From Candidatus Omnitrophota bacterium (GTDB taxonomy: Bacteria; Omnitrophota; Gorgyraeia; Gorgyraeales; Gorgyraeaceae), in contig JAPLMD010000044.1 of the NCBI GenBank assembly GCA_026387235.1, positions 1 through 52,969 on the forward strand: a DNA stretch of 52,969 bases, read 5' to 3'. Below the pieces are notes generated by a model, which saw only the letters and a program-made list of their open reading frames with translations, was not told the origin of the DNA and ran no database searches. Each line of letters begins with the position of its first letter. Within the stretch, counting starts at the first letter, position 1. Below, in pieces: positions 6,714-49,454 of the stretch. Position numbers and translations under genes: made by a program.

Positions 6714-6783
6714 GGTCCCTCGCGACTAGAAGCAAAAATAAGGGTCGCTCGGGATCAAATTTTGCTGCGCAAAATTTGGGAGG
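6714..6783 (+). promoter_or_regulatory. two-hairpin SD-proximal leader element, copy 1
   Basis: GGTCCC-TCG-CGAC...GTCG-CTC-GGGATC, then CAAATTTTG-ctgcg-CAAAATTTG, followed directly by GGGAGG and the ATG at 6789. Confidence 0.7.
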
Positions 6784-6788
6784 TATAA

Positions 6789-9418: not shown

Positions 9419-9420
9419 AA

Positions 9421-9472
9421 CCTGGTCCACCTGCCAGGTGAGCCAATTGGCTCACCTGGCAGGTGGACCAGG
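9421..9472. repeat. 52-nt perfect GC-rich palindrome between the two permease genes
   Basis: cctggtccacctgccaggtgagccaa|ttggctcacctggcaggtggaccagg. The two 26-nt halves are exact reverse complements, and no T-tract follows. Confidence 0.9.
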
Positions 9473-9490
9473 TAGGGATAGGGGTAGAAT

Positions 9491-18731: not shown

Positions 18732-18759
18732 CTCAAAAGAATTAAAAAGGAGGCAGTTA

Positions 18760-20271
18760 ATGCAACAAGCAATGAATCAGCCGGCCCGCCATATCACAGC
18801 CCGCGAAGACCGCATTCCTATTTTTCAAAAAGCCATATACAGTATAGGAGGACTTGTTAATAGCCTTCAGGCTGCCGCTCTTGGAGCGATGGTCATTGTT
18901 TTGAACATCGGATTAGGCATGAATCCCGCTTTAGTAGGCCTGGTGGGAGCTATTCCCCGTCTTATCGATGCCATATCAGATCCTGTTACCGGTTACTTTT
19001 CAGATAATTTTCGAACCCGATGGGGACGCCGCAGGCCTGTTATATTATTTGGAGCGATTACAGGAGGGATTTTCTACGCATTGATGTTTCAACTATATAA
19101 GGGGCATAGCGAAAGTTTCTATTTCTGGTATTTCGCGCTTTTCCAGTCTCTCTATTTCCTTGGATTTACCTGTTTTTCAATCCCATGGATCGCGCTAGGG
19201 TATGAAATGACACCCGATTATCATGAGCGAACACGACTGCAGGGGGCCAGCAATTTTATCGGTCAATTTGCCTGGGTGATCGCTCCCTGGTTCTTCAAAA
19301 TCATGGACAACAAGAGTATGTTCACAGATATTGTTCATGGAGCGCGAATCCTGTCAATAATCCTCGGCGCCTTTATAGTGGTTGGCGGTATACTTCCAGC
19401 TATTTTCAATAAAGAGCGTTTCGGTGACTTAGCGAAACCTAAAAGAGAAAAGGGGGCTTGGAATGTTACGAAAGACTTCTTTAGCGGTTTTGCGGTTGCT
19501 TTCAAATGTCGTCCATTTGTTAAGCTTTGCGCGGTAACATTCTTGATCTTCAACGGATTCATGCTCGCTTCCGCCTTCTCAGCCTATGTTATTTTCTTCT
19601 ATGTTTATCACGGCGATTATTCAAAAGGCGGGACATTGCTTGGTTGGTTTGGAACGGTTAGTTCCGTTTGTACTTTCTGCGTTATCTTCTTGGCCACATG
19701 GCTCTCCACAAAGATCGGAAAGCGAAACACCTTTATAAGCACCATTTCCATTTCAATCATCGGTTACGCTTTGAAATGGATAGGGTATAACCCCAATCAG
19801 CCATACTTACTGCTGATTGCTGCTCCATTCATAGCGTTTGGCCTGGGATCGCTCTTTACACTGGTCGGCTCTATGGTAGCTGATGTCTGCGACCTTGACG
19901 AGCTTAAAACCGAAACGCGCAGAGAAGGAATGTTTGGTGCTGTTTACTGGTGGATGGTAAAACTAGGATTGGCAGTTTCATCGCTTCTCTCCGGAATCCT
20001 CCTCAATGTGACCGGCTTCAATATTGCATTAGGCGCCAACCAAACAGCTAAAGCTTTATTGTATATGCGGTTCTGCGATATCGGCATTCCGATCGCGACC
20101 TCTTTAGCCGCTATTTTTATTATTATGACCTTTGACATCTCAGAAGCTAAGGCATATGACATTCGTAAGCAGGTCGAAAGACGAAGAGAAGAAAGACGAA
20201 GCGAAGAAAGGCGAGAAGAAGAAAGGCGAGAAGAAGAAAGGCGGAGCGAAGAAAGACGAAGCGAAGTGTAA
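18760..20271 (+). CDS. glycoside-pentoside-hexuronide (GPH) family cation symporter with Glu/Arg-repeat C-terminal tail
   Basis: Start at the ATG at 18760 with an AAGGAGG SD. The track start at 18712 overlaps the ROK gene. It carries the GPH hallmark DAISDPVTGYFSDNFRTRWGRRRP and about 12 hydrophobic helices. Confidence 0.9.
   Translation: MQQAMNQPARHITAREDRIPIFQKAIYSIGGLVNSLQAAALGAMVIVLNIGLGMNPALVGLVGAIPRLIDAISDPVTGYFSDNFRTRWGRRRPVILFGAITGGIFYALMFQLYKGHSESFYFWYFALFQSLYFLGFTCFSIPWIALGYEMTPDYHERTRLQGASNFIGQFAWVIAPWFFKIMDNKSMFTDIVHGARILSIILGAFIVVGGILPAIFNKERFGDLAKPKREKGAWNVTKDFFSGFAVAFKCRPFVKLCAVTFLIFNGFMLASAFSAYVIFFYVYHGDYSKGGTLLGWFGTVSSVCTFCVIFLATWLSTKIGKRNTFISTISISIIGYALKWIGYNPNQPYLLLIAAPFIAFGLGSLFTLVGSMVADVCDLDELKTETRREGMFGAVYWWMVKLGLAVSSLLSGILLNVTGFNIALGANQTAKALLYMRFCDIGIPIATSLAAIFIIMTFDISEAKAYDIRKQVERRREERRSEERREEERREEERRSEERRSEV
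20176..20265 (+). repeat. six tandem 15-nt purine-rich repeats (GAAAGRCGRAGMGAA) encoding (ERR[SRE]E)x6
   Basis: Units start at 20176, 20191, 20206, 20221, 20236 and 20251. They form the last 30 codons of the GPH gene. Confidence 0.9.
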
Positions 20272-29900: not shown

Positions 29901-30174
29901 CGAAGATAGATTCAGGCCTATTTTTATGACAACATCCACTACGATACTCGGACTGGTCCCAATGGCTTTTGACAGGAGCGAATCTGCAAATCTATGGTCT
30001 CCTCTCGCTATAACTGTTATAGGAGGACTGACGTCTTCTGCGATATTGACGCTTTTCCTGGTGCCGAGCGTTTATATGATCTTTGAAGATTTGAACAGCA
30101 TGATTTTTACGCCAAAACAATTATTAGTATTTATTCAAAAAAGAATTTGTGGTATAATAAATAGAAAAGTATGA
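26995..30174 (+). CDS. second RND (AcrB/HAE1-like) efflux permease
   Basis: ATGA overlap with the first RND gene. It is a 1059-aa paralog with the same TM/periplasmic-loop layout. Confidence 0.9.
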   Translation: MSLSSYSVNKPVSITMLFIGVVIVGVVSLIRLPVELKPNISYGDISIIVEVRGGMPPQEVESMVTKPIEEAVSTVTHLENIYSTSKAGESRIWLEFEPGINMDFAALETREKFSKIKDKLPKEIEKPILAQYKESDTPVMILAITSKAHTVETLRRVVDEQIKERILRVEGVANVDVYGGRERKILVEIDQARLQAHHVPIDYVVSSLGSNNFSLLLGDLPRGKNKYLIRALGTFESVKDIENIGVSVTPQGSVIKLKDVATVKDSFMEPSSYARTDIEPVVSIYIQKESTANTIKVVGGIKKELNQIKNIIDRNIYIKTTLNQADVINDAIDAVKSSLISGAFLSILILLITLRDLRPTFIISITIPISVMFTFILMYFQRLSLNVMTLSGLALGIGMLVDNSIVVLDNVDKKRSGLLPLPGWKEKDKNAVIEGASEMGLAIIASTITTVIVFLPFVFVNKETRMLWSGLAFTVTYSLLTSLFVAMTLVPTLLSQMARKPIEKKEQKVSNKSAALKIKGLYRKGLVMAIRFRYLLIAVAFLALSVAVFFGIKIDKEFMVEAEEGRFTIFVELEPGAKLDVTDKMVKELEERLSKIKEIKTFTSRVEPWSSKIYVKLVPVRNRASSTKEVMDAIRLEGDAVARRYKGGFIYFSELEESGLKELTLDLYGYDYKILKETAISIATRFGSIDGLQDIRMSRISGRPEWLIKIDKQQAGSFGFTTQEAAETLHGEIRGLRATLFHTEAREIETVTRLQKKYREKLDDVRRLTIYTSEGEPILLEQIADFVPDIGMSEIIRKNKTRVVHITAMVSKGSLQKAVEKVKASLADMEFPKDYYWRVGGDYERNIKSEKELSAFPFLLKSPYVQMPGVLWITLLLVFMVLAALFESFTQPFVILFSVPLAIVGVVSALYISHKPISRGVIIGAIMLAGIVVNNAIILVDRINFLRTKKDGARTDKYQEILRSAIIAGEDRFRPIFMTTSTTILGLVPMAFDRSESANLWSPLAITVIGGLTSSAILTLFLVPSVYMIFEDLNSMIFTPKQLLVFIQKRICGIINRKV
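30130..30158 (+). promoter_or_regulatory. possible internal promoter (extended -10) inside the 3' end of the RND gene
   Basis: TGGTATAAT (30150-30158) is the same extended -10 string as at 6682-6690. The -35 is weak (TTTATT, 17-nt spacer). It lies 16 nt upstream of leader element copy 3. Confidence 0.35.
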
Positions 30175-30242
30175 GGTCCCTCGCCGCGTATTTGCGGGCG
30201 CAATAGCGGCTCGGGATCAAATTTGCTTCGCAAATTTGGAGA
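30175..30242 (+). promoter_or_regulatory. two-hairpin SD-proximal leader element, copy 3
   Basis: It starts 1 nt after the RND stop. Sequence: GGTCCC-TCG-CCGC...GCGG-CTC-GGGATC, then CAAATTTG-cttcg-CAAATTTG-GAGA, then the ATG at 30250. Confidence 0.7.
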
Positions 30243-30249
30243 TAAATCT

Positions 30250-31428
30250 ATGGATAAAACACTGCGGTCAATACTATGGATATTGGTAGGATTGGTGGTG
30301 TTAAGCAGTTTCAGCACGGCTTGGTTTTTTCTTTCAAAGGAAAAACTCTATAATGAATATACGAATTTGGAAGAATTATTCAAGACTACCATGGATAAGC
30401 TGAATACGGAACTTACCCTGGCAACCAAGGAAAAAACAGAATTAAATTCGAAATTGCAGGCCATAAAAGAGAAATTTAACACCCTGGAGGCAAGTCATTC
30501 CACCCTGAAGTCTGAACGCGAGGCAGCGGTCGGCGAAAGAGATTCCCTGAAGAGGGATCTCGCTAGCGTTAAAAAAGGAAAAGCGTTCCTTGAGAATAGA
30601 TTGAAGGAAATGGAATCGGATATGTTTGTTGCCAACCTTCTTAAACAGAAAGTTGGGTTAGAAGTAGAGATAGATAGTTTAAAAAACGATATGGCCCCGA
30701 AAGATCGAGAGGTATCCAGATTAAAAGCTGAATGCATGGATAGAGATTTAAGGCTGGCCAAGTTGCAGGAAGAGAAGAATGCGATTGACCAGAGATTGAG
30801 AAATTCCGAACAGGTCGCGCAGATTCTGAGCAGCGACCTGCTGAAAGAAAAGGATGCGAATAAAAACGACAAGGCAATGTCTGAAAAGACTGCAATGGAG
30901 AATAGCGCGCTTAGATTCAAAATATCAGAATTCGAGGGGATAGCGAAAGAATACAATAACCTTTTGGCTGAGAAAGAAAATATGAAAACAAACCTTGCCA
31001 GGCTCGAAAGCGATATAGAGCATAAGAATCGGGAAATAGATAAATTCAAGATCGCGCTTCAGGAAAATGCGGCCAGGCCTGGGGAAATAAGGGCAGAGAC
31101 GTATCATAGCCCCGAAGAAGTAGATCTCCCTCCAATCGTCGCGCAGAAGACAGCTAAACTTACGACCCCTTCTTTGGAACGGATAGGCGAGAATACGGAG
31201 TTAAAAGGCAGGATTGTTACGATTAATAAGGAGCATAATTTTGTAGTCATAGACCTTGGCAGGCAGGACGGTATTGGCATAGGGAATAAGTTTAATGTTT
31301 ACAGAGGAGATACATTTCTTGGCTCAGTAGAAATTATACAGGCGCGCGACAGGATTGCCGCGGCTGACATAAAAGATTTGACAGAAGGCATGAGCATAGA
31401 AATAAATGATACTGTTGTAAAAAGATGA
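30250..31428 (+). CDS. membrane-anchored long coiled-coil protein with small C-terminal beta domain
   Basis: Start at MDKTLRSILWILVGLVVLSSF (TM anchor) just after the leader element. The track start at 30223 lies inside the element. About 270 aa are heptad-rich (E/K/L) and the protein ends GRIVTINKEHNFVVIDLGRQDGIGIGNKFNVYRGD.... Confidence 0.6.
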   Translation: MDKTLRSILWILVGLVVLSSFSTAWFFLSKEKLYNEYTNLEELFKTTMDKLNTELTLATKEKTELNSKLQAIKEKFNTLEASHSTLKSEREAAVGERDSLKRDLASVKKGKAFLENRLKEMESDMFVANLLKQKVGLEVEIDSLKNDMAPKDREVSRLKAECMDRDLRLAKLQEEKNAIDQRLRNSEQVAQILSSDLLKEKDANKNDKAMSEKTAMENSALRFKISEFEGIAKEYNNLLAEKENMKTNLARLESDIEHKNREIDKFKIALQENAARPGEIRAETYHSPEEVDLPPIVAQKTAKLTTPSLERIGENTELKGRIVTINKEHNFVVIDLGRQDGIGIGNKFNVYRGDTFLGSVEIIQARDRIAAADIKDLTEGMSIEINDTVVKR

Positions 31429-31431
31429 GCG

Positions 31432-32508
31432 ATGGACCTTTCGAAATTTTCAGTAATATTAGACCTCAAGAAAAAGGTAAGCACTAAATCTCTCGTCTTA
31501 TTTACTAGACAGCTATCCACGCTTATAGCAGCAGGCCTACCTCTTGTAAAATCCCTCAGGACATTGCAGGATCAGCTGGAAACAGGAACTTTGAAAGGCG
31601 TTATAAAATCAATAGCCGATGAAGTGGAAAGCGGTTCCAACTTTTCAGAGGCCCTGGCGCACTTTCCGAAAGTGTTTCCGGATTTTTACATAAATATGAT
31701 AAAGGCCGGAGAACTCGGAGGCATGCTTGAGGATATACTAAAGCGCCTGTCTGAGTTTCTGGATAAGACGCAGAAACTGAAGGATAAGGTAAAATCAGCG
31801 CTCATGTACCCTATGTTTGTCATGATAGTCGCGGTGCTTATACTTATCATGTTGATGGTGTTTGTAATCCCTACGTTTACAAGCATGTTTTCAGAGGTAG
31901 GAGGGAGCCTTCCTATTCCTACTAAGATATTGATAGTTATAAGCGAGATTACAAGGCGCATATGGTTTCTTATACCTCTTTTGCCTGTGGCCGTGATCGC
32001 GATATATAAGGCGATTGTAAAAAATCCTGACAGAAGATTGATAGTTGATAAGATGAAACTGCACATACCTGTTGTAGGGAATTTAATACAGCAGATTGCG
32101 GTTGCAAGATTTTCAAGGACGCTGGGAACGCTGCTTTCAAGCGGAGTTCCGATACTTGCCGCGCTTCAGACAGTGAGAGATACTATAGGCAATGAATTCA
32201 TTGCCAGGGCGGTTATGCAAGTGCGGGACAGCATAAAAGAAGGAGAAAGCGTATCTGGGCCTATGGAGGCAAGCAAGGCTTTTCCGCCGCTTGTCACAAA
32301 GATGGTTTCTATAGGCGAGGAAACAGGGGATTTGGCCAAGATGCTGATACAGATCGCGGATAATTTTGAAGACGAGGTAGATGTGGCAGTAAGCGGCCTT
32401 ACATCTCTTCTTGAACCGCTTCTTATAGTTTTTATGGGCCTTGTCGTTGGATTTATCGTAGTTTCGATGTTTATGCCGCTATTTTCGCTGGCAAAACTTA
32501 TCGAATAA
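31432..32508 (+). CDS. type II secretion / type IV pilus platform protein (GspF/PilC family)
   Basis: Two T2SSF-type repeats (FTRQLSTLIAAGLPLVKSL... and FSRTLGTLLSSGVPILAAL...) with three TM helices. Confidence 0.85.
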   Translation: MDLSKFSVILDLKKKVSTKSLVLFTRQLSTLIAAGLPLVKSLRTLQDQLETGTLKGVIKSIADEVESGSNFSEALAHFPKVFPDFYINMIKAGELGGMLEDILKRLSEFLDKTQKLKDKVKSALMYPMFVMIVAVLILIMLMVFVIPTFTSMFSEVGGSLPIPTKILIVISEITRRIWFLIPLLPVAVIAIYKAIVKNPDRRLIVDKMKLHIPVVGNLIQQIAVARFSRTLGTLLSSGVPILAALQTVRDTIGNEFIARAVMQVRDSIKEGESVSGPMEASKAFPPLVTKMVSIGEETGDLAKMLIQIADNFEDEVDVAVSGLTSLLEPLLIVFMGLVVGFIVVSMFMPLFSLAKLIE

Positions 32509-32510
32509 AA

Positions 32511-32894
32511 ATGAACAAAAAAGGTTTTTCACTGCTGGAATTAATTATCGCGATAGCCGTATTGGCTGTTGGTTTGGTGGGAGTGCTGCAGATATTTCCT
32601 ATTGGTTTAAGGGCATCACAGCGCGCAGGCATGATGACAAAGGCGTCTTTTCTGGCCCAGAATAAGATAGAAGACGTAAAACTGGCAGGATTTGACGCAA
32701 TAGCAGAACTCCCTCCGAAAATACCTCTTTCAGGAATGGACGGAGATTTTGAGTGGGCTATAAAAATAGATAATGTTTCGCTTGAAGGAGTGGAATCGCA
32801 GGATGATATGAGAAAGGTTGTAGTTACTGTCAGCTGGCCTGAACGCAATACCGCAAGATCCAAAGATTTTATTACATATGTCACTAAGCAATAA
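32511..32894 (+). CDS. prepilin-type minor pseudopilin (GspI/PilV-like)
   Basis: MNKKG|FSLLELIIAIAVLAVGLVGV is a class III signal peptide with a cleavage/methylation motif. Confidence 0.8.
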   Translation: MNKKGFSLLELIIAIAVLAVGLVGVLQIFPIGLRASQRAGMMTKASFLAQNKIEDVKLAGFDAIAELPPKIPLSGMDGDFEWAIKIDNVSLEGVESQDDMRKVVVTVSWPERNTARSKDFITYVTKQ

Positions 32895-33561
32895 AGATAC
32901 ATGGGAGCACAAGGACACAAGGACACAAGGACACAAGGACACAAGTGTCGTGGTGTCTTGGTGTCCTGGTGTACCCACGAAAGCAGTCTTATATAAGGGT
33001 TTTACACTTGTTGAAATATTAATCTCACTTGCGATATTGGCAATGATAGTTACTTCTACGTTTACAATTTTCAGAAGCGCTTCAAAATCCTGGCAGAAGG
33101 GCGAGACTAGAAGCGAGCGTTATCAAAATGCGAGAAGCGCCATCTCCAGGATTAGCTCAGAGACAAGCCAGGCGGTAATTAACAGCAGTCCTCTTTGTAA
33201 ATTTACAGGAGATAAGAACAAGGTCAGTTTTGTTTCTTTTGTTTCTACGGGCCCAGGCGTATTTGAACTTAGCGAAGTGGAATACTGGCTGGATGGCGCT
33301 AAAAGGCTTCTTATGCGCAATGATGAAATAGACCCGGATTATGATTTTACAACCTATGGCCATAGCGACATATTAAGTGAAAACATTTCAGAGCTGGAAT
33401 TTTCATATTTTGATGGGTTGATATGGCTAGATACCTGGAATTCTGATCAAGCCTCAGGCGTTGGCCTGCCAAAGGCAGTTAAGATAAAGATAAGAGTAGA
33501 AGATAAAAAAGCTAAAGAAGGCGAAATTTTTGAAGTCATAGCCCGCCTTAGAACCGCATAA
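32878..33561 (+). CDS. prepilin-type pseudopilin (GspJ-like); start codon uncertain
   Basis: The KG|FTLVEILISLAILAMIV methylation motif lies 42 codons after the ATG at 32878, and those codons are largely the octamer element. In-frame GTGs at 32950/32953 would give a normal short leader but lack an SD. Confidence 0.7.
   Translation: MSLSNKDTWEHKDTRTQGHKDTSVVVSWCPGVPTKAVLYKGFTLVEILISLAILAMIVTSTFTIFRSASKSWQKGETRSERYQNARSAISRISSETSQAVINSSPLCKFTGDKNKVSFVSFVSTGPGVFELSEVEYWLDGAKRLLMRNDEIDPDYDFTTYGHSDILSENISELEFSYFDGLIWLDTWNSDQASGVGLPKAVKIKIRVEDKKAKEGEIFEVIARLRTA
32904..32972. repeat. octanucleotide tandem-repeat hairpin (GGACACAA)x4-5 directly abutting (TGGTGTCY)x~3.5
   Basis: Perfect units are at 32913, 32921, 32929 and 32937, with the inverted arm at 32946-32972. 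The loop is almost absent and there is one A.G mismatch per unit. Confidence 0.9.
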
Positions 33562-33576
33562 ACTGGAAATGATATT

Positions 33577-34584
33577 ATGAAAATAGGCATAATCGGCCCG
33601 GCGCAGTCCGGTAAAACAACCATATTTAAAGTCCTGCTGCAGTCTGCCAATATTACCGGCGATATAGGAATGCTTAAATTCATGGACCAGCGCATAGAAA
33701 AGCTGAGCGATATCTTTTCTTCAAAGAAAAAGGTTTATCCTGAAACAGCTTTTCTGGATATAGGCCTGGCAACTGGTTTTACGGGTAAAGAGTATTCCAA
33801 ACTGCATGACATAGACCTCTTTATATGCGTGGCAAACGCGTTTTTCAACGAAGACCCTAAAAAAGACCTGGAAAGCTATATAACGGATCTCATACTTTCT
33901 GACCTTGAGGCAATACAGTCCAGGATTACCAGGATAGAGAAAGAAAGAATGAAGATGAAGACTGATGCGGAAGGGGAAACGAGGCTGTTAAAGAAATGCC
34001 AGGATTCTCTTGAAAATTCAAAACTTTTACGCAATATAGGGCTAGCCAGGGACGAACTGAAACTTTTTTCCGGTTTTTCATTTATAACTCTCAGGCCCAT
34101 AATTGTTGTTATAAACCTTGAAGAAGGGAAACCTGAAGATAAGGTAAAGTCAACTGAAGAATACTGTTCTATAATTGGCATGAGGCATGTAAGGTTTTTT
34201 GGCAAGACAGAGCTCGAGCTTCTGGAATTAAATCCGGAAGAACGCGATCAATTTTCCAAAGAGATGGGCTCCGGGTATAATTTCAGGGAGAATATGTCAA
34301 AATTAATATGCAGGGAATTGAATCTTATTACATTTTTTACGGCAGGAGACAAAGATACTACAGGCTGGCATTTGGAATCAGGCTTGAGCGTAATAGAAGC
34401 CGCGGGCAAGATACATTCTGATATAAAAAGGGGTTTTATCAGGGCAGAGGTCGTGAATTACGAAGATTTCGTAAAATTTGAGGGCAATATGCAGAAGGTG
34501 CGCGAAGCAGGATTGTTAAAGATAGAGGGGAAAGAGTATATTGTTAAAGATGGGGATATGTTAAACATCCGTTTTAATGTATAA
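33577..34584 (+). CDS. YchF-like (Obg family, DUF933 C-terminal domain) P-loop NTPase, divergent
   Basis: P-loop GIIGPAQSGKTTIF and a helical insertion. The C-terminal ITFFTAG..GWH...G....AAGKIHSDIKRGFIRAEVV...F matches the YchF TGS-like domain pattern. Confidence 0.7.
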   Translation: MKIGIIGPAQSGKTTIFKVLLQSANITGDIGMLKFMDQRIEKLSDIFSSKKKVYPETAFLDIGLATGFTGKEYSKLHDIDLFICVANAFFNEDPKKDLESYITDLILSDLEAIQSRITRIEKERMKMKTDAEGETRLLKKCQDSLENSKLLRNIGLARDELKLFSGFSFITLRPIIVVINLEEGKPEDKVKSTEEYCSIIGMRHVRFFGKTELELLELNPEERDQFSKEMGSGYNFRENMSKLICRELNLITFFTAGDKDTTGWHLESGLSVIEAAGKIHSDIKRGFIRAEVVNYEDFVKFEGNMQKVREAGLLKIEGKEYIVKDGDMLNIRFNV

Positions 34585-34585
34585 C

Positions 34586-34615
34586 ATCAAATTTTGTTTC
34601 ACAAAATTTTGGAGG
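34586..34615 (+). promoter_or_regulatory. SD-proximal leader element, copy 4 (hairpin 2 only)
   Basis: ATCAAATTTTG-tttca-CAAAATTTTGGAGG starts 2 nt after the YchF-like stop. The ATG is at 34620. Confidence 0.6.
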
Positions 34616-34619
34616 AAGA

Positions 34620-36191
34620 ATGCGGAAGATTAGAAGGGCGCTTATAAGCGTTTCAGACAAGGCAGGATTAGAAGAACTGGTAAAGGTGTTGAATGAATTT
34701 AAAGTAGAGATATTATCGACAGGCGGTACAGCCAAACTTATAGCGGGCTTGGGCGTACCTGTTAAATCCGTGTCAGACCACACTGGATTTCCGGAGATGT
34801 TAGACGGCAGAGTAAAGACATTGCATCCGAAGATTCACGGCGGGCTGCTGGCTATCCGGGATAAAAAAGAACATATGGAGCAGATTAAAAAACATGATAT
34901 AAGCCTGATAGATATGGTTGTAGTGAATCTTTATCCTTTTGAAAAAACAGTCGCCAAGTCCGATGTGAAATTAGAAGAGGCGATCGAGAATATAGATATA
35001 GGCGGGCCAAGCATGCTGCGCTCAGCAGCAAAAAATTCTAAAGATGTTGTGGTGGTGTGCAATCCTGATAGGTATAGAGATGTGATAGAAGAATTAAAGA
35101 AAAATGACGGAGCGATCTCCGATGAATTGCATTTCAGGCTAGGGGTGGAGGTGTTTGAAAAGACGTCAAAGTATGATGCGGCAATTTATAACTATTTGAA
35201 AAAACAGGTTGGCGGCGAAGAGTCAAAGGTGGAGGGTGAAGATTTTCCTGAAACATTGGAATTAAAATTTTACAAGGTGCAGGGGTTGAGATATGGAGAA
35301 AATCCTCATCAGAAGGCGGGTTTCTATAAAGATAAAAATGTGAATGCGGCAGGTATTTCCAATGCCAGGCAGCTTCACGGTAAAGAGCTGTCATTTAATA
35401 ATATAATAGACCTGGACGCAGCGATTGAAATAGTAAAAGAATTCGAAGAACCTGCGGCGAGCGTTATAAAACATACGAATCCCTGTGGTGCGGCAAGTAA
35501 TAAGACATTGGCGGACGCATATAATGATGCTTTGGATTGCGATAAGGTTTCCGCTTTTGGAAGCATAGTAGGCCTTAATAGAGAGGTGGATTTTAAAACA
35601 GCCGAGGCAATAATCAATGCCGGTTTTACAGAGTGCATTATTGCGCCTTCGTATGAAAAAAAGGCCCTGGATATTTTAATGGCAAAGAAGAATTTGAGAT
35701 TAATAGAAACGGGAGAATTGAAAGGAATAGAAAAAGATTATGATCTTAAAAAGGTTGTAGGCGGGCTTTTGATACAGGATAGAGATGTTTTTCATATAGA
35801 AGAAAAAGATTTAAGGGTGGTTACGAAGAAGAAACCTACAAAGGAAGAGACAGCGTCTTTGCTTTTCGGTTGGAAAATAGTGAAACATGTAAGGTCAAAT
35901 GCAATAGTCCTGTCACAGGGCACTAAGACCGTAGGGATAGGAGCGGGCCAGATGTCCAGGGTTGATTCAATGGTTATCGCCATAATGAAATCCAAAGGAC
36001 TTTCTAAAGGCGCTACATGCGCGAGTGACGCGTTCTTTCCTAAAGAAGACGCTATAGAAGAAGCCAAGAAAGCAGGCATAACGAGTATAATCCAGCCAGG
36101 CGGTTCTATCCGCGATGAGTATGTAATAAAAGCATGCGATGACGCAGGTATAAGCATGGTTCTTACAGGCGTCAGGCATTTTAAGCATTGA
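34620..36191 (+). CDS. purH: bifunctional AICAR transformylase / IMP cyclohydrolase
   Basis: 523 aa with the MGS-like N terminus RALISVSDKAGLEELV...STGGTAKL and VKTLHPKIHGGLL. It is PurH-like over its full length. Confidence 0.95.
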   Translation: MRKIRRALISVSDKAGLEELVKVLNEFKVEILSTGGTAKLIAGLGVPVKSVSDHTGFPEMLDGRVKTLHPKIHGGLLAIRDKKEHMEQIKKHDISLIDMVVVNLYPFEKTVAKSDVKLEEAIENIDIGGPSMLRSAAKNSKDVVVVCNPDRYRDVIEELKKNDGAISDELHFRLGVEVFEKTSKYDAAIYNYLKKQVGGEESKVEGEDFPETLELKFYKVQGLRYGENPHQKAGFYKDKNVNAAGISNARQLHGKELSFNNIIDLDAAIEIVKEFEEPAASVIKHTNPCGAASNKTLADAYNDALDCDKVSAFGSIVGLNREVDFKTAEAIINAGFTECIIAPSYEKKALDILMAKKNLRLIETGELKGIEKDYDLKKVVGGLLIQDRDVFHIEEKDLRVVTKKKPTKEETASLLFGWKIVKHVRSNAIVLSQGTKTVGIGAGQMSRVDSMVIAIMKSKGLSKGATCASDAFFPKEDAIEEAKKAGITSIIQPGGSIRDEYVIKACDDAGISMVLTGVRHFKH

Positions 36192-36196
36192 TAAAA

Positions 36197-36384
36197 ATGA
36201 AGCAGGCTGGGGCCATTCGGCACTGAAAGAGTTTCGCCGTGCGCTACGGTTTACGGCTCATTTTTATACCGAAGGTAGTCTTGACGGTATAAAAACTTCG
36301 CCGTAATTCCTTGCGCACTTAGTATTAAGAATGCTATTAATGCCGAAACTTTTCTGAGGTGCCTCAGGTCCCATCCTGCTTCAT
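36197..36384 (+). repeat. rod-like structured intergenic repeat, long form, copy A
   Basis: Termini ATGAAGCAGGCTGGGGCC / GGTCCCATCCTGCTTCAT are inverted. Internal nested stems are TTTTTATACCG/CGGTATAAAAA, TTACGGC/GCCGTAA and GTGCGC/GCGCAC. It is homologous to 49332..49429 and, inverted, to 52776..52952. Confidence 0.85.
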
Positions 36385-36395
36385 TAAAGTTTATT

Positions 36396-37745
36396 ATGGA
36401 TTACAGAGATACTATAGACTATATTAACTCCTTCATAAATTTCGAAAAGATACCCAAATACCAATATGCTTCTGCATTTAAACTGGAGCGGATGAACGCT
36501 ATTTTAGAGGAATTAGGCAACCCTCATAAAGATTTGAATATTATTCATGTCGCAGGCTCTAAGGGCAAAGGGTCTACGTGCGCTATTGCAGCTTATATCT
36601 TAAAAGAAGCCGGGTATAAGGTTGGGCTGTATACTTCTCCGCACCTTGTTGATTTCAAGGAGAGAATAAGAATACTTAATGACGGGCCGGATGGTCCGAG
36701 AGAATTTGAAGGCATGATAGGCGAAGAAGAAGTTAATGAGATCTTAAAAGAAATAAAACCTGTTGCGGAAAATTTCAGAGAACATAGGACTCTGGGCAAG
36801 GCGTCTTTTTTTGAGATCTTGACAGCGTGCGCTTTTTTATATTTTAAAAAAAGACAAGTTGATATAGCGGTTTTGGAGGTAGGCCTTGGAGGAAGGCTTG
36901 ACGCGACGAATGTCGCAATGCCTTTAGTATCCGGAATAACAAATATCAGCTTGGAACATACTGATAAACTAGGCAATACTCTGGCCAAGATTGCGTATGA
37001 AAAGGCAGGAATTATAAAAGAGCATAGTTTAGTTGTTAGCGCTTCTCAGGAAACAGAAGCAATGGATGTCATAAGAAAAGTTTGCATTAAAAGAGATGCT
37101 GAATTATACGAGATTGGAAAAGATATTAAATATTCTATTTTAAATTCAGGTGAAAAAGGCCAGGTTTTTGATTTGAAAGGGCCCGAGTATTCTTATAAAA
37201 ATCTGGAAGTGAGTTTAATAGGTGTCCACCAGATTGAAAATGCTTCTATCGGCATAGGCATGCTTAAGCTTATGGATCCGGATAGGTTTAATATAAGAGA
37301 AAACGATATAAGAGAAGGGTTAAAGAAGGTATCTTGGTCCGGGAGATTGCAGGTAATCCAGAGAAGTCCATACATAGTTTTAGACGGAGCTCATAATTTA
37401 GTCAGCGCGACTGCATTGGCAGATTCCATAAAGAAACTATTCAGTTACAGGAAGTTGATATGCGTATTTGGGATATCAAGCGACAAGGATATAAAAGGCG
37501 TGAGTAGCGTTTTAGATATAATCAGTGATATAATAATTCTGACTCAAGCAAAGAACAATCCAAGGGCAGAAGATGTATCAAGGTTAAAACAAAATTTTAG
37601 AAATTCAAGGCCAGGCCTTGAAGAAAGCAGCAATATAGAAGAAGCTATGCAGAAGGCATTGAGGCTTGCGGATAAAGATGATTTAATATTAGTTACCGGT
37701 TCATTGTTTATTGTCGGCGAGGCAATGGCGCGGTTAAAAATGTAA
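36396..37745 (+). CDS. folC: bifunctional folylpolyglutamate synthase / dihydrofolate synthase
   Basis: Mur-ligase P-loop HVAGSKGKGST, YTSPHL, and the LEVGLGGRLDATN motif typical of FolC. Confidence 0.9.
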   Translation: MDYRDTIDYINSFINFEKIPKYQYASAFKLERMNAILEELGNPHKDLNIIHVAGSKGKGSTCAIAAYILKEAGYKVGLYTSPHLVDFKERIRILNDGPDGPREFEGMIGEEEVNEILKEIKPVAENFREHRTLGKASFFEILTACAFLYFKKRQVDIAVLEVGLGGRLDATNVAMPLVSGITNISLEHTDKLGNTLAKIAYEKAGIIKEHSLVVSASQETEAMDVIRKVCIKRDAELYEIGKDIKYSILNSGEKGQVFDLKGPEYSYKNLEVSLIGVHQIENASIGIGMLKLMDPDRFNIRENDIREGLKKVSWSGRLQVIQRSPYIVLDGAHNLVSATALADSIKKLFSYRKLICVFGISSDKDIKGVSSVLDIISDIIILTQAKNNPRAEDVSRLKQNFRNSRPGLEESSNIEEAMQKALRLADKDDLILVTGSLFIVGEAMARLKM

Positions 37746-37760
37746 CATAGCGAAGCTGTT

Positions 37761-39182
37761 ATGAGTAATATTTACTTAAATGATACGATTGTGGCGATTT
37801 CAACGCCTATAGGAGAAGGCGGCATAGGGATTGTCCGTTTAAGCGGCAGGGAAAGCCTGGAACTTGCGGATAAAATATTTCTGTCTAAAGAGGGTAAAAA
37901 ACCTTCGGAATTCAAGACGTATACGGTTCATTACGGTCATATTATAGAAAAAGACACCAAGACACCAAGACACCAAGACACCAAAATTGTGGATGAAGTG
38001 ATACTGACTGTTATGCGGGCACCGAGAAGTTATACTAAGGAAAATGTGGTTGAGATAAATTGCCATAGCGGCATAGCGCCGCTCAAAAAGATAATGGATT
38101 TGTGCTTGGTTAATGGGGCCAGGCTTGCAGAGCCGGGAGAGTTTACTAAAAGGGCATTTTTAAACGGGAGGATAGATATACTTCAGGCAGAGGCAGTTCT
38201 GGATATAATAAAGGCAAAAACAGAACTTTCGCTGAGATCTGCGTTGAATAATCTGGAAGGCCTTTTTTCCAAAAAGATAAATGAGATAAGGAAAAAGCTG
38301 ATTGAAATATATGTCCACATGGAGGCTTCTATAGATTTTTCAGAAGATGACCTGCGGGGCATTAAAATAAGCAGGATCTTTAAAAAATTGAATATTATAA
38401 AAAATGAGATAGAAAAACTTGTTTCGAATTCTAATCAGGGCAGGATTTTACGGCAGGGTATAAAAACAGTCATATGCGGAAGCCCTAACGTAGGCAAATC
38501 CAGTCTCATGAATGCCATATTAAAGGAATCTAGATCTATTGTTACGCATATTCCTGGAACTACAAGGGATACAATAGAAGAGATTGTAAATATCAGGGGG
38601 ATTCCTGTGACGCTTGTGGATACGGCAGGCATAACTGATACAGACCATTTGGTAGAAAAAGAAGGCATAAGAAGAAGCCGCATTTATTTAAGAAACGCAG
38701 ATTTGATTTTACTGGTTCTGGATTGGTCCAGGAGGCTGAATAAAGATGATGTGGATATAATAAAGAAAATAAGGGATAATAGTAAGGAAGCGATAGTGGT
38801 TATAAATAAGGTAGATCTCAAAAGAAAATTGGATATTAAAAAGGTTAAAAGATTTTTTCCAAAGAGTTATTTTGCGCATATATCTGCTTTGAATCTGAAA
38901 GGCGTTGACAATCTGGAAGACGGAATCAAAGATATAGTTTGGAAAGGCAAGGCTCCGGGAGCAGGTTTTATAGGCGCTTCAAATGAAAGACAATTGGATA
39001 TTCTAAGGCGCTGCGCTTCAGATATAAATGAAGCTATGGCGGCGCATAAGAGCGGGTTATTCATGGATTGCACAAGCGTTTATGTAAGATCTTCTATAGA
39101 AAGTCTTGGAGAAATAACAGGCCAGACAATAACAGACGAAACGCTGGATAAGATATTTTCAGAGTTTTGTATCGGTAAATAA
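37761..39182 (+). CDS. mnmE: tRNA modification GTPase MnmE (TrmE)
   Basis: N-terminal [23 protein letters not shown] domain [21 protein letters not shown], and the C-terminal FCIGK motif. Confidence 0.95.
37952..37983. repeat. octanucleotide tandem repeat (AGACACCA)x4 inside the mnmE coding sequence
   Basis: Perfect units are at 37952, 37960, 37968 and 37976. They are read in frame as [12 protein letters not shown], and there is no adjacent inverted arm. Confidence 0.9.
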
Positions 39183-39780: not shown

Positions 39781-41109
39781 ATGCGTAAAAAATGGCTTAT
39801 AGCCTTATTATTCTTGATAGCTGTTGGCCTGATTACATGGATTAGTATTAAACAAAAACCTCTCTATAGAGCCGGCTCTACTGTTGTTTTGGATATAGTA
39901 AATCCGGAAAGCTTAGGAGCGAAAGATATTTTAAAATCAAGAAAAACAGATTATTTTGCCTATAAGGCCTATATAGAAACGCAGCGGGAAATAATAAAAT
40001 CCAGGCGCGCCGCGTACCATGTTATAAAAAACCTTGGGCTAAGAAATAAAGAGGCGTTCAATGCGGAAAAAGATCCTATAGGAGACCTGCTTAAAAAATT
40101 AAAAGTAGATGTTGTAAAAGGCACGTGGGTTATAAGGATAAACGTAGAGGACGAGGATCCTAAAGAAGCCAGCCGCATGGCAAATGAATTTGCCAGGGTG
40201 TATGTCAATTCTAATCTGAGCCGCATACAAACAAACAATAGCCGAGTGCAGGATTTTGCAGACGTTCCTGCGGAACCTGTCGGGCCTAATAAAAGGTTGA
40301 GCATAATAGTTTCTGTAATATTGGGTATTGCCGGCTGGAGCAGTATAATTTTTTTCAGAAAACCCAATGACGGCGCGATTAAAAATCCAGACGACATAGC
40401 GGTTTTGCTTCAATTACCTGTATTGGGTTCTGTGCCTAAAATTAAGCCGGACGGGCAAAATTTGAAGACGAAGGCAGATATAGACAGGGTGGTTGAAAAG
40501 AATCCAGTGTGCATGGCTTCCGAGGCGTATCGTTCAATAAGGGCTAAACTGTTGTTTTCATTGAATAATGCCGGTTCTATTGCGAAAAGCATAGTTATAA
40601 CAAGTTCCGCGCTGAAAGAAGGGAAGACAATCAGCGCGGTAAATTTAGCGATAATGATAGCGCATAGCGGAGAAAGCGTGCTTCTTGTGGATGTTAATAT
40701 GAAAAGGCCGAGAGTTCATACTGTATTCAATATGAATAATGACATAGGGTTTGCTAATTACCTTTCAGGAGAAGCGGATTTCGACAGTATCGTTAAATAT
40801 CCCGGGATTGACAATTTATCTATTGTTACCTCCGGAGACAGCTCTTATAAACCTGTTGAATCTATTTCTTCAAAAAATGCAAAGCTTTTTTTGGAAAAAG
40901 CAAGTACGGGATTTTCAAAGGTAATATTTGACGCGCCTTCTGTCGCGTTCCTTGCAAATGCGGCGACATTATTAAATATTTGCGACGGCGTAGTGCTTAT
41001 AGCTGAAAACAATAAAACCCCAAAGAATATTTTAGATAACTCAAAGGAATTATTACATAAGAGGGGTGCGAATATAATAGGAGTTATATTAAACAACGTT
41101 TCATTTTAA
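39781..41109 (+). CDS. polysaccharide co-polymerase (Wzz-like) fused to a BY-kinase-type P-loop domain, lacking a C-terminal Tyr cluster
   Basis: Two TM helices flank a periplasmic helical region. Walker A-like SALKEGKT, Walker A' VLLVDVNMKRP and Walker B VIFDAPS are present. The C terminus (...GVILNNVSF) has no tyrosine run. Confidence 0.7.
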   Translation: MRKKWLIALLFLIAVGLITWISIKQKPLYRAGSTVVLDIVNPESLGAKDILKSRKTDYFAYKAYIETQREIIKSRRAAYHVIKNLGLRNKEAFNAEKDPIGDLLKKLKVDVVKGTWVIRINVEDEDPKEASRMANEFARVYVNSNLSRIQTNNSRVQDFADVPAEPVGPNKRLSIIVSVILGIAGWSSIIFFRKPNDGAIKNPDDIAVLLQLPVLGSVPKIKPDGQNLKTKADIDRVVEKNPVCMASEAYRSIRAKLLFSLNNAGSIAKSIVITSSALKEGKTISAVNLAIMIAHSGESVLLVDVNMKRPRVHTVFNMNNDIGFANYLSGEADFDSIVKYPGIDNLSIVTSGDSSYKPVESISSKNAKLFLEKASTGFSKVIFDAPSVAFLANAATLLNICDGVVLIAENNKTPKNILDNSKELLHKRGANIIGVILNNVSF

Positions 41110-41110
41110 C

Positions 41111-41213
41111 GGGTCCCTTTCGCAAAATAGGCCCTTCGGCAGCTAAAATGCTCGCTTTGCTCGCATTTCTTTACGCTGCCTCAGGATCAAATTTGTTTCA
41201 CAAATTTGGGAGG
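41111..41213 (+). promoter_or_regulatory. two-hairpin SD-proximal leader element, copy 5 (expanded variant)
   Basis: GGGTCCCTTTCGC..., then GGCCC-TTC-GGCAGC...GCTGCC-TCA-GGATC, then CAAATTTG-tttca-CAAATTTG-GGAGG, then the ATG at 41219. It starts 2 nt after the preceding stop. Confidence 0.65.
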
Positions 41214-41218
41214 ACAGA

Positions 41219-41770
41219 ATGAGATTACTTATGTTGGTTACATTGTTTTCTTTTATTGCAGGATGTTCGTCCGGCAATAGCAATGCTGAAAATAAGATCG
41301 TTGCGCAGATAAATAAATACAAGATGACGGCGGGAGATCTCAGGTATGAATTTAAAAATGCCTCGTACGATGAAATAGAACGCATAAAAACAGAAAACGG
41401 AAGAAAACAATACCTGGAGAGCTTTATAGAGAAAGAGGTGCTCTTGCAAGAGGCGCAGCGTCAGGGCGTAGACAAAGAAAAGGCATTTATGAAGAGTATC
41501 GAAAATTACTGGGAACAGGCGCTTCTAAAGACGTTGCTGGAAAGAAAGAGCAGGGAGATTTCAGGCATAATCCATGTTTATGATAATGAGATAGAGGACT
41601 ATTGCAGGGATTTCGGAGAAGGCGCGAGTTTTTCAAAAGTTAAGAATGAAATAAGAGGCATGATAAAGAAGAAGAAAGAAGAAGATGCGATGAACGCGTG
41701 GATAAATGAGCTGAAAAACAAGGCTTATATAAAGATAGATGAAAACGCTGCAAAGGATGCTTTTAAATAA
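41219..41770 (+). CDS. lipoprotein with SurA-N-terminal-like chaperone domain
   Basis: Lipobox IAGC. The helical domain pattern (KINKYKMTAGDL..., LESFIEKEVLLQEAQRQG) is as in SurA/PrsA N-terminal domains, and no PPIase domain is present. Confidence 0.5.
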   Translation: MRLLMLVTLFSFIAGCSSGNSNAENKIVAQINKYKMTAGDLRYEFKNASYDEIERIKTENGRKQYLESFIEKEVLLQEAQRQGVDKEKAFMKSIENYWEQALLKTLLERKSREISGIIHVYDNEIEDYCRDFGEGASFSKVKNEIRGMIKKKKEEDAMNAWINELKNKAYIKIDENAAKDAFK

Positions 41771-48980: not shown

Positions 48981-49331
48981 ATGAACAAAAAACTATACGG
49001 CGGAATATTAGGCACAATAGGATTCTTATTATCTCCTCTTTCCTGGTGGAATGACCTGTTTATAAATTTCCCTATAGCCTATGCTTTTGCCTGCGCGGCA
49101 AATTTTATTTACAAAGGGTCATTTTTAAACGCGCTTATTATTTTCTACTGGCTGACAAATATCCTGGGATTTGTGTTATTGCAAAAAGGCCTGGAAAAGA
49201 TGGAGAAGGATACTGAAGAAAAAAAGAAGTATTCCGGAAAAGATTTTTTGAGAGATATATTATTTTCCGTTGCTTATACTTTATTAATAGTAATATTGGT
49301 AAAGTTAGGTATAATCAAACCTATAATATAA
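48981..49331 (+). CDS. small polytopic membrane protein of unknown function (alternative leaderless start at 48879)
   Basis: MNKKLYGGILGTIGFLLSPLSWWNDLFINFPIAYAFACAANF... has 3-4 hydrophobic helices. The 34 codons upstream (MATESSGLSAARLPCRRGCC...) are GC-richer, structured and repeat-like. Confidence 0.6.
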   Translation: MNKKLYGGILGTIGFLLSPLSWWNDLFINFPIAYAFACAANFIYKGSFLNALIIFYWLTNILGFVLLQKGLEKMEKDTEEKKKYSGKDFLRDILFSVAYTLLIVILVKLGIIKPII

Positions 49332-49429
49332 TTGTCAACCCCCAGGCTGGGGCCGTTCGGCGCAGAGAAAGAACCGGTTATGCCGAAACCTCTCAAATGC
49401 GCCTCAGGCCTCAGCCTGGGGGTTGACAA
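49332..49429 (+). repeat. rod-like structured intergenic repeat, short form, copy B
   Basis: TTGTCAACCCCCAGGCTGGGGCC...GGCCTCAGCCTGGGGGTTGACAA is a 23-nt inverted terminus with one mismatch. It matches both ends of copies A and C but lacks their ~85-90-nt central module. Confidence 0.85.
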
Positions 49430-49454
49430 ACATAATTAGAAAATTAAACCAAAT

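Follow-up and report, generated by a model that had tools for sequence, protein, structure and literature searches.

Rickettsia palindromic elements (RPEs) are dispersed repeats with long stem-loops that lie either between genes or in frame within conserved genes, where they are apparently tolerated and not required (PMC10969869; PMC2229807). In enterobacteria, YPAL/RU-2 and intragenic ERIC sequences are hairpin repeats resembling MITEs that are translated in fusion with host ORFs, and the predicted signal peptide of Yersinia YPO1552 is partly formed by such an element (PMC2229807). REP/BIME/REPIN sequences are short palindromes that mostly follow coding regions directly, in co-directional gene pairs, are often present in multiple copies and occasionally lie within genes; one end of a REP or REPIN bears an unpaired tag, GTAG or CGTC (PMC3733652). 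Short tandem repeats (STRs) of 7 nt, including the cyanobacterial STRR, the GGGAATC type of Xanthomonas and Nostoc and TAACTGA of Beggiatoa, occupy the same intergenic sites and vary between close relatives, and little is known about simple sequence repeats (SSRs) with units of 6-9 nt (PMC4692102; PMC4679880).

The hairpin described here lies at the junction of two pseudopilin genes of a Candidatus Omnitrophota bacterium, in a window (the whole stretch of DNA analysed) of 52,969 nucleotides. It is probably a member of a rapidly turning-over palindromic repeat family, translated at this site as a tolerated passenger in a disposable leader peptide, as far as sequence comparison can tell. Both host genes are encoded on the plus strand. 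The GspI-like gene (32511-32894; Pfam N_methyl at residues 2-26) ends with the TAA at 32892-32894, and the GspJ-like gene (32878-33561) begins at an ATG that lies 14 nt before this stop codon, so that the two listed ORFs overlap by 17 nt; the junction, TATGTCACTAA[AG]TAA, is conserved in orthologs. The GspJ-like protein matches PF11612 (T2SSJ) with 33.6 bits (cut-off 28) over residues 113-210 and Pfam N_methyl with 27.4 bits (cut-off 21.2) over residues 40-60, and those of its 148 homologs that are named in their source are called GspJ or prepilin-type N-terminal cleavage/methylation domain proteins.

The N-terminal methylation motif of this protein, KG/FTLVEILISLAILAMIV (the slash marks the cleavage site), has the expected Gly-1, Phe+1, Glu+5 and hydrophobic helix. 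Leaders of T2SS pseudopilins typically have 5-8 residues. The usual short basic leader (about 5-25 residues) is not seen here, as 40 residues precede Gly-1 (GGT, 32998-33000) in an extended prepilin leader encoded by 32878-33000 (plus strand), with predicted cleavage at KG/FTLVEIL. The earlier note had placed the cleavage site 42 codons from the ATG, which holds for Phe+1 (codon 42) but not for Gly-1, which is codon 41, the leader being 40 residues plus the glycine. Its statement that the element begins 10 nt after the GspI-like stop codon, inside the only ATG-initiated frame of the GspJ-like gene, agrees with the coordinates: the repeat array begins 10 nt and the stem 7 nt past the TAA, and the ATG at 32878 is the sole ATG in that frame.

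The element as a whole (32899-32986, plus strand) was delimited by alignment of 13-16 copies from four kinds of gene junction, with a left end ACATGGG at 32899-32905 and a right end CCCACGAAAGCAG at 32974-32986. Its T-free left arm (32905-32944) consists of one GAGCACAA (32905-32912) followed by four perfect GGACACAA units (32913-32944). The right arm (32945-32974) is made of TGGTGTCY-type units with a single A, in the order GTGTC, GTGGTGTC, TTGGTGTC and CTGGTGTA at 32945-32973, and encodes the mostly apolar VVVSWCPGV. Tandem Repeats Finder reported 4.8 copies at 100% and 3.5 copies at 90%, and a 16-mer pattern was matched 12 times in the window against 0.25 expected, a count reached by none of 100 shuffles. 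A folding prediction, one of the checks proposed in the earlier note, gave -42.3 kcal/mol for the RNA of the 32902-32977 region compared with -23.4 for shuffled sequences (z -5.96; none of 200 shuffles folded as well), and the DNA fold of the hairpin gave -21.6 kcal/mol (z -5.35). The existence of an octamer hairpin at this junction is thus borne out by repeat, shuffle and folding tests alike.

Two details of its description need amendment. Both folds place the stem-loop at 32902-32977, where 32902-32934 pairs with 32945-32977, that is, four left units with the right arm, and leaves the fifth left unit (32935-32944) as a loop of about 10 nt, so the hairpin is not near-loopless. The stem was described as about 27 bp with one A.G mismatch per unit; the single mismatches between stem blocks are indeed A.G within octamer units, but the stem measures 29 bp in blocks of at most 7 bp. 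An assembly artefact was ruled out, because other assemblies, made independently, contain the identical element sequence: L146 (JGI), L147 (ENA) and a Logan contig from run X5.

Judging from the aligned copies, the hairpin is one member of a dispersed repeat family with the conserved ends ACATGGG and CCCACGARAGCAG. Family copies were found at four junction types, namely the GspI-like leader, the GspJ-like leader, the spacer between GspJ and YchF, and the N-terminus of a TPR protein, and copies other than this one also lie shortly 3' of stop codons. Fourteen copies were folded, of which 11 gave z values of -3.8 to -10.8 and three, the GspJ-like copy of L015, the TPR copy of the window and the YchF-side copy of L024, gave -1.6 to -3.0. 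The copies in the GspJ/YchF spacer (L001, L004, L020 and L150) are untranslated, and the protein downstream of them, YchF with its N-terminal P-loop, has no room for an extension; in L150 translated and untranslated copies share an identical 82-nt core. The unit type is specific to the genome in L146, L148, L015 and L150; as a general rule this is contradicted by L152. The dispersed and rapidly exchanged family, with its members in untranslated spacers, lay beyond the reach of the earlier note, which viewed a single sequence.

Searches beyond the family returned little. The 40-residue leader gave five weak and uninformative matches (35-42 bits) among 1.84 billion representative proteins, and an idealised element peptide matched only short, spurious ORFs made of repeats, showing that such arrays occur in many contexts but giving no information on their place within proteins. 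No Rfam 15 family reached its gathering score anywhere in the window, the only hits being chance-level matches to miRNA hairpins at about 19 bits. Literature searches by sequence string found nothing relevant, and those on Omnitrophota repeats found nothing. An octamer-pattern scan of IMG/VR yielded about 107 contigs of one phage group with a direct GAACACCA array, which was judged unrelated to the hairpin. A genome scan with the pattern GRACACMAR x3 found nonamer hairpins in many phyla; this pattern has a period of 9 and no bearing on the distribution of the octamer family.

The comparison of genomes indicates that the element turns over quickly. Between the window and L146 only one of the 153 nt at 32884-33036 is changed, compared with 69 of 398 flanking positions (about 17%), although this near-identity could also reflect selection on the sequence instead of recent transfer. 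Contigs with flanks 99-100% identical have different cassettes, in frame, the GspI site is empty in the window and filled in L146, and the depth of the array in metagenomes is 10-25 times that of its flanks. Since no transposase was noticed in a non-exhaustive look through the window, and no clean target-site duplication emerged when filled and empty sites were compared, we infer the mobility of the element, and its presumed way of copying, only from this distribution.

How the insert is read can be judged from the orthologs. The baseline ortholog leader has 7 residues (MSLSRLKG/F), with 21 nt from the ATG to the glycine codon. The ATG that lies in the overlap with the upstream gene is conserved: of 115 called orthologs, 84 start with MS or ML, which corresponds to the junction ATG. 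Leader length in these 115 varies from 4 to 52 residues, and in ten of them the Gly or Ala of the cleavage site lies past position 35 (41 in the window). The 20 insert-bearing GspJ loci partly share phylogeny and represent roughly 10-12 distinct inserts; at 19 of them the insert, of 36-153 nt, preserves the frame from the junction ATG and contains no stop in it. The sole exception, L007, has a 116-nt insert and, just 5' of G/FT, a new GGGAG-ATG, a newly gained Shine-Dalgarno (SD) sequence and start codon; elsewhere the upstream junction ATG is kept. The octamer-type inserts at the GspI junction are likewise in frame (5/5). Judged from these sequences, the junction ATG at 32878 is the ancestral GspJ-like start. 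Because it is conserved, because 19 of 20 loci stay in frame and because the exception has gained its own SD and ATG, the 40-residue leader is most likely translated and then removed at KG/FTLVE. Among the possibilities raised in the earlier note, this pattern favours a leader that would truly be extended by the element.

Another of those possibilities was a start at one of two in-frame GTG codons by the hairpin apex (32950-32955), in which case the element would in effect be structured RNA, intergenic or in a 5' leader, and the true prepilin leader would have about 16 residues. Both GTGs, at 32950 and 32953, are present and in frame as had been noted; the first is preceded at 9 nt by AAGGA (32936-32940), which sits in the loop or close to it; a leader of 16-17 residues would fall in the normal range and yield the same mature protein; and the ATG at 32878 has no obvious Shine-Dalgarno sequence. 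However, baseline orthologs can start only at the upstream ATG, and unrelated inserts that contain no internal start are in frame as well. An internal start also fails to explain why left arms and loops are kept open. In copies of the window type the A-rich loop has stops only in the two frames other than that of GspJ, and in eight such variants of 117-153 nt the left arms and loops are open from the upstream ATG while the other frames contain stops. The in-frame GTGs themselves carry little weight, as one arises automatically in a third of right-arm units. Initiation within the hairpin is consequently regarded as unlikely, and reading through from the ancestral ATG is preferred.

The composition of the arms is relevant to their tolerance. 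Neither arm contains a stop codon in any of the six frames; the left arm has no T and the right arm only one A. Being T-free, the left arm can encode neither stops nor hydrophobic residues in any frame and gives polar residues only, and the A-poor arm gives mostly apolar ones, so that the order of polar then apolar peptide follows from arm composition in every frame.

An 8-nt unit is not a multiple of 3, and 4.8 copies inside an ORF could in principle form a contingency locus, in which slippage by one unit would switch the minor pseudopilin on or off. The perfectly homogeneous left arm implies recent slippage or conversion, and one extra unit would bring into frame the element-borne ATG at 32901, which in the window opens a 31-codon ORF (32901-32996, plus strand) out of the GspJ frame. 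All variants seen in relatives nevertheless differ by multiples of 3 nt and not of 8, and a switch is impossible in the untranslated spacers that also contain these elements. Moreover, the octamer copy number is the same in the window, L146, L147 and the X5 contig, all assembled contigs, which break at the array, despite the divergence of about 17% in the flanks. Phase switching therefore appears very improbable.

An RNA-level role has to be considered next to the tolerated passenger, although a look for RNA runs containing the locus turned up none. The malE-malF REP is an example of a stop-proximal REP that affects its upstream gene, and such REPs, in the 2015 work of Liang, Rudd and Deutscher, reportedly can affect upstream gene expression and mRNA stability. 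The present hairpin might have been selected as an RNA element of the operon, a 3' stabiliser, a processing site or a brake on the GspJ-like gene, with translation being incidental. Its position 7-10 nt after a stop codon suits such a role, as do the related hairpins behind stop codons at other junctions, the strong folding of all copies although their unit sequences differ, and the nonamer analogues of other phyla, 16 of 28 of which lie behind ORF ends against 19% in the control. REPs, too, are found mainly downstream of coding regions (PMC3733652). The hairpin lacks a U-tract, its tail being GAAAGCAGTCTTATATAAGG, and no terminator-like site was found here in a scan of 30000-35000, so that an intrinsic terminator was rejected. 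Nor was any asymmetry in sense versus antisense stability or in G.U counts seen among 19 copies, the plus strand being the more stable in 11. Gating by hairpin melting, raised in the earlier note, likewise found no support. The arms are homogenised separately while mismatches accumulate, every left unit in the window carrying a C-to-A change; many orthologs have no hairpin at all, and partial deletions leaving one arm persist. These observations make selection as an operon RNA element quite unlikely; as a passenger, the hairpin might still have some effect as RNA, for instance by shielding the 3' end of the upstream message or by lowering translation of the downstream gene.

The second family copy in the window, at 14765-14875 (plus strand), comprises five GGTCAYAA units, a loop and five TKGTGTCY units, and encodes the whole plausible Sec signal peptide (MRGHKVIRSQGHKVTNIFLPLCLFVLVSWCSCVLVYA/QEQ) of a TPR protein, including the conserved YA/QEQ site. 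All orthologs of this protein have ordinary signal peptides ending in YA/QEQ. The link drawn earlier between the junction hairpin, the site at 14771 and exported envelope proteins is upheld by this copy, and hairpin copies are found in genes for exported proteins because cleavable N-terminal peptides tolerate the element. A third site, at 37951-37984 (plus strand), holds an array of 4.2 AAGACACC units of the octamer family without an inverted arm, in frame within a loop of the N-terminal domain of MnmE; relatives have other 7-8-nt arrays at the same position of the protein.

The TPR copy invites the view that the long leader itself is adaptive, a functional N-terminal peptide with a portable SD-ATG and polar and apolar arms that alters targeting or the timing of processing. 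The copies in GspI-like leaders do bring their own GGGAG-ATG, equivalent to the ATG at 32901 and used as the start codon in L015, L146 and L148, and the polar-then-apolar order noted above would suit a signal. Against this, pseudopilins require no additional targeting segment, leaders of 4-8 residues suffice in most orthologs, different inserts encode unrelated leader peptides, and identical elements occur in untranslated spacers; an adaptive leader is thus highly doubtful. The hairpins might also be exchangeable N-terminal cassettes that make signal peptides or leaders of envelope proteins and are spread between strains by recombination, which is rather unlikely. If they were, the succession of SD-ATG, T-free arm, loop and A-free arm would give a polar or basic and then apolar peptide in any frame, the signal peptide at 14765-14875 would have arisen from a repeat element, and the related tandem-unit hairpins of distant phyla, with their common GACAC[AC]A core, would suggest one generating mechanism for all.

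With the hairpin as a tolerated passenger, the following course may be proposed. An element with arms of tandem 7-8-nt units would lodge right behind a stop codon, much as REPs do, and it comes to lie inside the GspJ-like ORF because that gene starts 14 nt before the GspI-like stop. It would persist because it is stop-free in six frames and because its length keeps the frame. Ribosomes would initiate at the ancestral ATG at 32878 and read through the element, producing a leader of 40 residues in place of 7, and the prepilin peptidase, which would have to accept a predicted leader of this length with an apolar stretch, would cut it at KG/FTLVE and leave the mature pseudopilin unchanged.

Several consequences follow for annotation and for the biology of these genomes. 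The long ORF from the ATG at 32878 is probably correct, and should be neither trimmed to an internal start nor called a pseudogene. Leader length in this GspJ-like ortholog group (4-52 residues) mirrors repeat content and not pilin class, and the series forms a natural set for the limits of leader length and hydrophobicity set by prepilin peptidase. The TPR copy is a concrete case of a whole predicted signal peptide encoded by a repeat element. Exchange of cassettes at strain level marks the GspI/GspJ junction as a hot spot of recombination or insertion that may be useful in strain typing. In a compact genome whose genes overlap, hairpin repeats would thus survive by way of peptides that are cut off and loops that are permissive, helped by stop-free arms; this is a known survival route for repeat DNA in tightly packed genomes, of which the hairpin is an unusual example.

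Compared with the systems outlined at the outset, the Omnitrophota element shares with MITEs and RPEs a long stem-loop, dispersed copies with conserved ends, in-frame fusion to ORFs and presence/absence polymorphism among close relatives. Like the SSRs of contingency loci it has a unit that is not a multiple of 3 inside the ORF of a surface-apparatus protein, but its variants all keep the frame, it also occurs in non-coding spacers, and no copy-number polymorphism was seen in contigs, which break at the array. Leaders of type IVb pilins have about 15-30 residues and, like the present one, are prepilin-type signals well above 5-8 residues; here, however, the 40 residues come from an inserted repeat and, with 4-52 among orthologs, are not a class feature. 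As in 7-nt STRs, the length and sequence of the unit arrays change from one close relative to another, although STRs are direct arrays in non-coding DNA, whereas this array pairs with an inverted one, is flanked by conserved ends that are not repeats and lies in the reading frame. As with REPs, the palindrome lies just downstream of a coding region, but its ends carry no GTAG or CGTC tag, its stem of 29 bp compares with 20-40 nt for an entire REP, its arms are tandem repeats and this copy is translated. YPAL and ERIC likewise are hairpin repeats translated in fusion with host ORFs; the Omnitrophota element differs in encoding an entire signal peptide (14765-14875) as well as a prepilin leader, in having neither TA ends nor a visible target-site duplication, and in arms made of short tandem repeats. 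RPEs are also dispersed palindromic stem-loops found both between genes and in frame, but they are 105-150 bp long, encode a conserved peptide and lack tandem-unit arms, whereas the arms here are 7-8-nt unit arrays that vary between genomes, and the element is placed in surface loops or in N-terminal peptides predicted to be cut off. The hairpin represents a new version of the in-frame palindromic elements exemplified by RPE and YPAL.

The hairpin element (32899-32986) lies between the stop codon of the GspI-like gene (32892-32894) and the KG|FTLVE cleavage site of the GspJ-like gene, both genes being on the forward strand. The open reading frame of the latter begins at ATG 32878, carries N_methyl (residues 40-60) and T2SSJ domains, and places Gly-1 of the prepilin at codon 41. 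The left arm (32905-32944, forward strand) consists of one GAGCACAA unit and then four perfect GGACACAA units, and the right arm (32945-32973, same strand) of GTGTC, GTGGTGTC, TTGGTGTC and CTGGTGTA; Tandem Repeats Finder gave 4.8 copies at 100% and 3.5 copies at 90%. The two-unit 16-mer matched the window 12 times against 0.25 expected from shuffles. Folding of 32890-32990 gave -42.3 kcal/mol as RNA, compared with -23.4 +/- 3.2 for shuffles (z -5.96), and -21.6 kcal/mol as DNA (z -5.35). The stem (32902-32977) has 29 bp in blocks of at most 7 bp split by single mismatches, those inside octamer units being A.G. An earlier note had described the hairpin as near-loopless, which does not hold because the fifth left unit (32935-32944) makes a loop of about 10 nt. 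The element does not match a canonical terminator, since a U-tract is absent, and an Rfam search of the whole window returned no match.

A second copy in the window, the TPR copy (14765-14875), has the same octamer type arranged as GGTCAYAA x5, a loop and TKGTGTCY x5 (14770-14870). The type recurs without an inverted arm in MnmE (AAGACACC x4.2, 37951-37984). Among relatives' loci, copies were found in the GspJ-like leader (L015, L146-L152), in the GspI-like leader (L015, L017, L146, L148, L152) and in the untranslated spacer between the GspJ-like gene and the downstream YchF gene (L001, L004, L150, with a decamer version in L020); a decamer version also occupies the YchF/PurH spacer of L024. 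Both family ends are conserved (left, ..RAC ATGGG NRCAC; right, G CCCACGAGAGC A/T), and YchF spacers show the related CCCA[CT]GA. Eleven of the 14 copies folded had z of -3.8 to -10.8, the weaker ones (-1.6 to -3.0) being the L015 GspJ, window TPR and L024 YchF copies. Nearly all folded copies have one mismatch or bulge per unit, irrespective of unit sequence. In the GspI-like leaders the start codon in use is that of the element's own GGGAG-ATG; the element-borne ATG at window position 32901 is out of phase with the GspJ-like frame. The translated GspJ-leader copy of L150 and an untranslated copy 700 nt downstream share an identical 82-nt core, indicating that the same DNA is tolerated as coding sequence and as spacer.

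The 148 GspJ-like homologues share a constant KGFTLVEIL and have widely divergent N-termini; their names assign the window to Omnitrophota. The junction DNA TATGTCACTAA[AG]TAA is conserved among orthologues, which places the downstream ATG 11-14 nt ahead of the upstream stop. In the simplest loci 21 nt separate this ATG from the Gly codon (MSLSRLKG|F), with no alternative start between. Insert-bearing loci, with several unrelated hairpin families, have 36-153 nt extra between stop and Gly codon, and reading from the conserved ATG stays open and in phase in 19 of 20 of them (the window's own locus, L001, L008, L010, L012, L014-L018, L020, L021, L024, L146/L147 and L148-L152). The sole out-of-phase locus, L007, has a 116-nt insert (phase 2) and a new GGGAG-ATG immediately before G|FT. 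By our arithmetic, with about 10 clearly different inserts, so many would be in phase by chance with a probability of the order of 1e-4. In copies of the window's type, the A-rich loop places stops in the two unused frames only, leaving the used frame free. Across 115 called orthologues the cleavage-site Gly/Ala, whose position equals leader length plus one, lies at 4 to 52, being at 8 or less in 50 and beyond 35 in 10. Such selection on frame suggests that translation starts at the ancestral ATG and continues through the insert, which becomes part of the leader.

There is no T in the left arm and one A in the right arm, and 32902-32977 has no stop codon in any of the six frames. T-free DNA has no codons for Ile, Leu, Val, Phe or Met, and A-free DNA none for Lys, Asp, Glu, Asn, Gln, His or Tyr; in every frame, therefore, a polar/basic segment comes first and an apolar one second. 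The GspJ-leader copy reads ..WEHKDTRTQGHKDT, then SVVVSWCPGV, and the TPR copy encodes MRGHKVIRSQGHKVTNIFLPLCLFVLVSWCSCVLVYA|QEQ. Seven TPR orthologues were found; one lacks its N-terminus, and in the other six an ordinary Sec signal peptide of unrelated sequence ends at the same site, (Y/S)A|QEQ or YA|EE. Given these ordinary signal peptides, the entire predicted TPR signal peptide of this genome is element-encoded. Where the downstream protein cannot accept an extension, the element is kept outside the ORF, as for YchF, whose P-loop occupies residues 1-15.

Different 7-8-nt arrays also occur at the same sites in different lineages in MnmE, PurH and FolC loops, in frame every time. The MnmE arrays lie in the N-terminal domain loop between HYGHI.. 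and ..DEVILTVM (window 37951-37984; L001 5673-5703; L011 15090-15113; L014 6892-6917), where the baseline is 3 residues and the longest insert 17. In relatives, in-frame heptamer arrays (GCAGAGA x5, GTCACAG x5, AAAAGGC x4.7) were found in the PurH linker, all at one site (L002 3141-3175, L014 4019-4053, L024 12396-12431), and in the FolC loop (L014 5841-5873, L024 13666-13685); the window has no array at either site. A 15-nt/30-nt tandem repeat, GAAAGACGAAGAGAA x6 (20176-20266), lies at the 3' end of the gene at 18712-20271 and probably encodes a charged low-complexity tail.

Over 2.2 kb the window's locus is 78-88% identical to L146, yet the 153 nt of 32884-33036 contain one mismatch, against 69 in the adjoining 398 nt. 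In contigs from two sequencing runs (X3 and X4), with flanks 99-100% identical to the window, 32888-33000 is swapped for 38-nt in-frame cassettes; comparison with L150 and L152 shows one of these (..GCGCTTATGCGCCCATGAGAGCTAATAAGGAA) to be what is left of a right arm of the family. Array depth was 10-25x flank depth in four metagenomes, so the array is multi-copy. Unit count was equal in the window, L146, L147 (independent JGI and ENA assemblies) and a contig from run X5, all being assembled contigs, which break at the array. Units tend to agree between copies inside one genome (L146, L148, L015, L150; not L152). No transposase was noticed in a non-exhaustive scan of the window, and no clean target-site duplication was found between filled and empty sites. 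The pattern fits exchange by recombination or repeated insertion, combined with within-genome gene conversion and frequent partial deletion.

Other hairpins were also observed. A perfect loopless 54-nt palindrome, ACCTGGTCCACCTGCCAGGTGAGCCAA | TTGGCTCACCTGGCAGGTGGACCAGGT (9420-9473; RNA fold -58.8 kcal/mol, z -10.8), begins 2 nt past the stop of the gene at 8525-9418. Long intergenic hairpins at 36191-36396 and 49331-49455 (-92 and -69.5 kcal/mol, z about -10 to -11.5) have GGCTGGGGCC[AG]TTCGGC ... GCCTCAGG in common and look like a second, MITE-like family. A third intergenic family, GGTCCCTCGC ... CTCGGGATCAAATTT, occurs at 6634-6789, 30174-30223 and 41109-41219, followed in two of the three spacers by a small hairpin whose end is the next gene's Shine-Dalgarno sequence, GGGAGG. 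Mini-hairpins (GTAGGGGGCGGTTTCAAACCGCCCCCTAC, AAATCCATGGATTT, CCCTCGACT[CT]CGCTCGGGAC) nested in octamer-element loops or in leaders (L150 490-540 and 1215-1265; L152 25-215; L024 10090-10130 and 13690-13720) suggest further very small repeat families inserting into hairpin loops. In one relative, a 23S_rRNA_IVP domain (PF05635) gene (L151 361-777) lies directly upstream of the GspI-like gene, with TAGTAACCAA-type repeats at their junction.

In genome contigs (L026-L145), nonamer arrays GGACAC[AC]A[AG] frequently precede their inverted array, and the pair forms hairpins with base AACCACAAAG..CTTTGTGGTT. Their hosts are Acidobacteriota (many in a single Thermoanaerobaculia MAG), Proteobacteria, Planctomycetota, Chloroflexota, Cyanobacteria and one Omnitrophota; some matches are plain coding repeats, as in Streptomyces. 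Sixteen of 28 clear nonamer hairpins lie within 50 nt of a long-ORF end, against 19% of random positions. About 107 IMG/VR viral contigs (L153-L232), the majority from a single sample, have in common GGGACAAACACCAGAACACCAGAACACCAGAACACCAAAGAAAGA with a short AT-rich palindrome behind it, a direct octamer array that is conserved within one phage group and has no relation to the hairpin.

The element is probably a tolerated repeat whose translation product is a disposable leader. It may protect the 3' end or damp downstream translation; it lies directly behind stop codons like REPs (PMC3733652), a proximity common to the nonamer analogues (16/28 vs the 19% control). Against a role for mRNA structure, no sense-strand preference was seen: sense RNA was favoured in 11 of 19 copies and sense and antisense stabilities were about equal, so mRNA structure is not singled out as the selected feature.

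In the literature searched, no description was found of a hairpin with conserved ends whose arms are tandem octamers, of such an element residing in a prepilin leader, or of one that encodes a complete signal peptide. Cyanobacteria, Xanthomonas and Beggiatoa are known to have 7-nt-unit arrays that differ between relatives (PMC4692102, PMC4679880), and REPs resemble the Omnitrophota element in their placement behind stop codons (PMC3733652). In-frame palindromic repeats are known as Rickettsia RPE and as enterobacterial ERIC and YPAL/RU-2, and include a Yersinia protein with a partly element-derived signal peptide (PMC10969869, PMC2229807).
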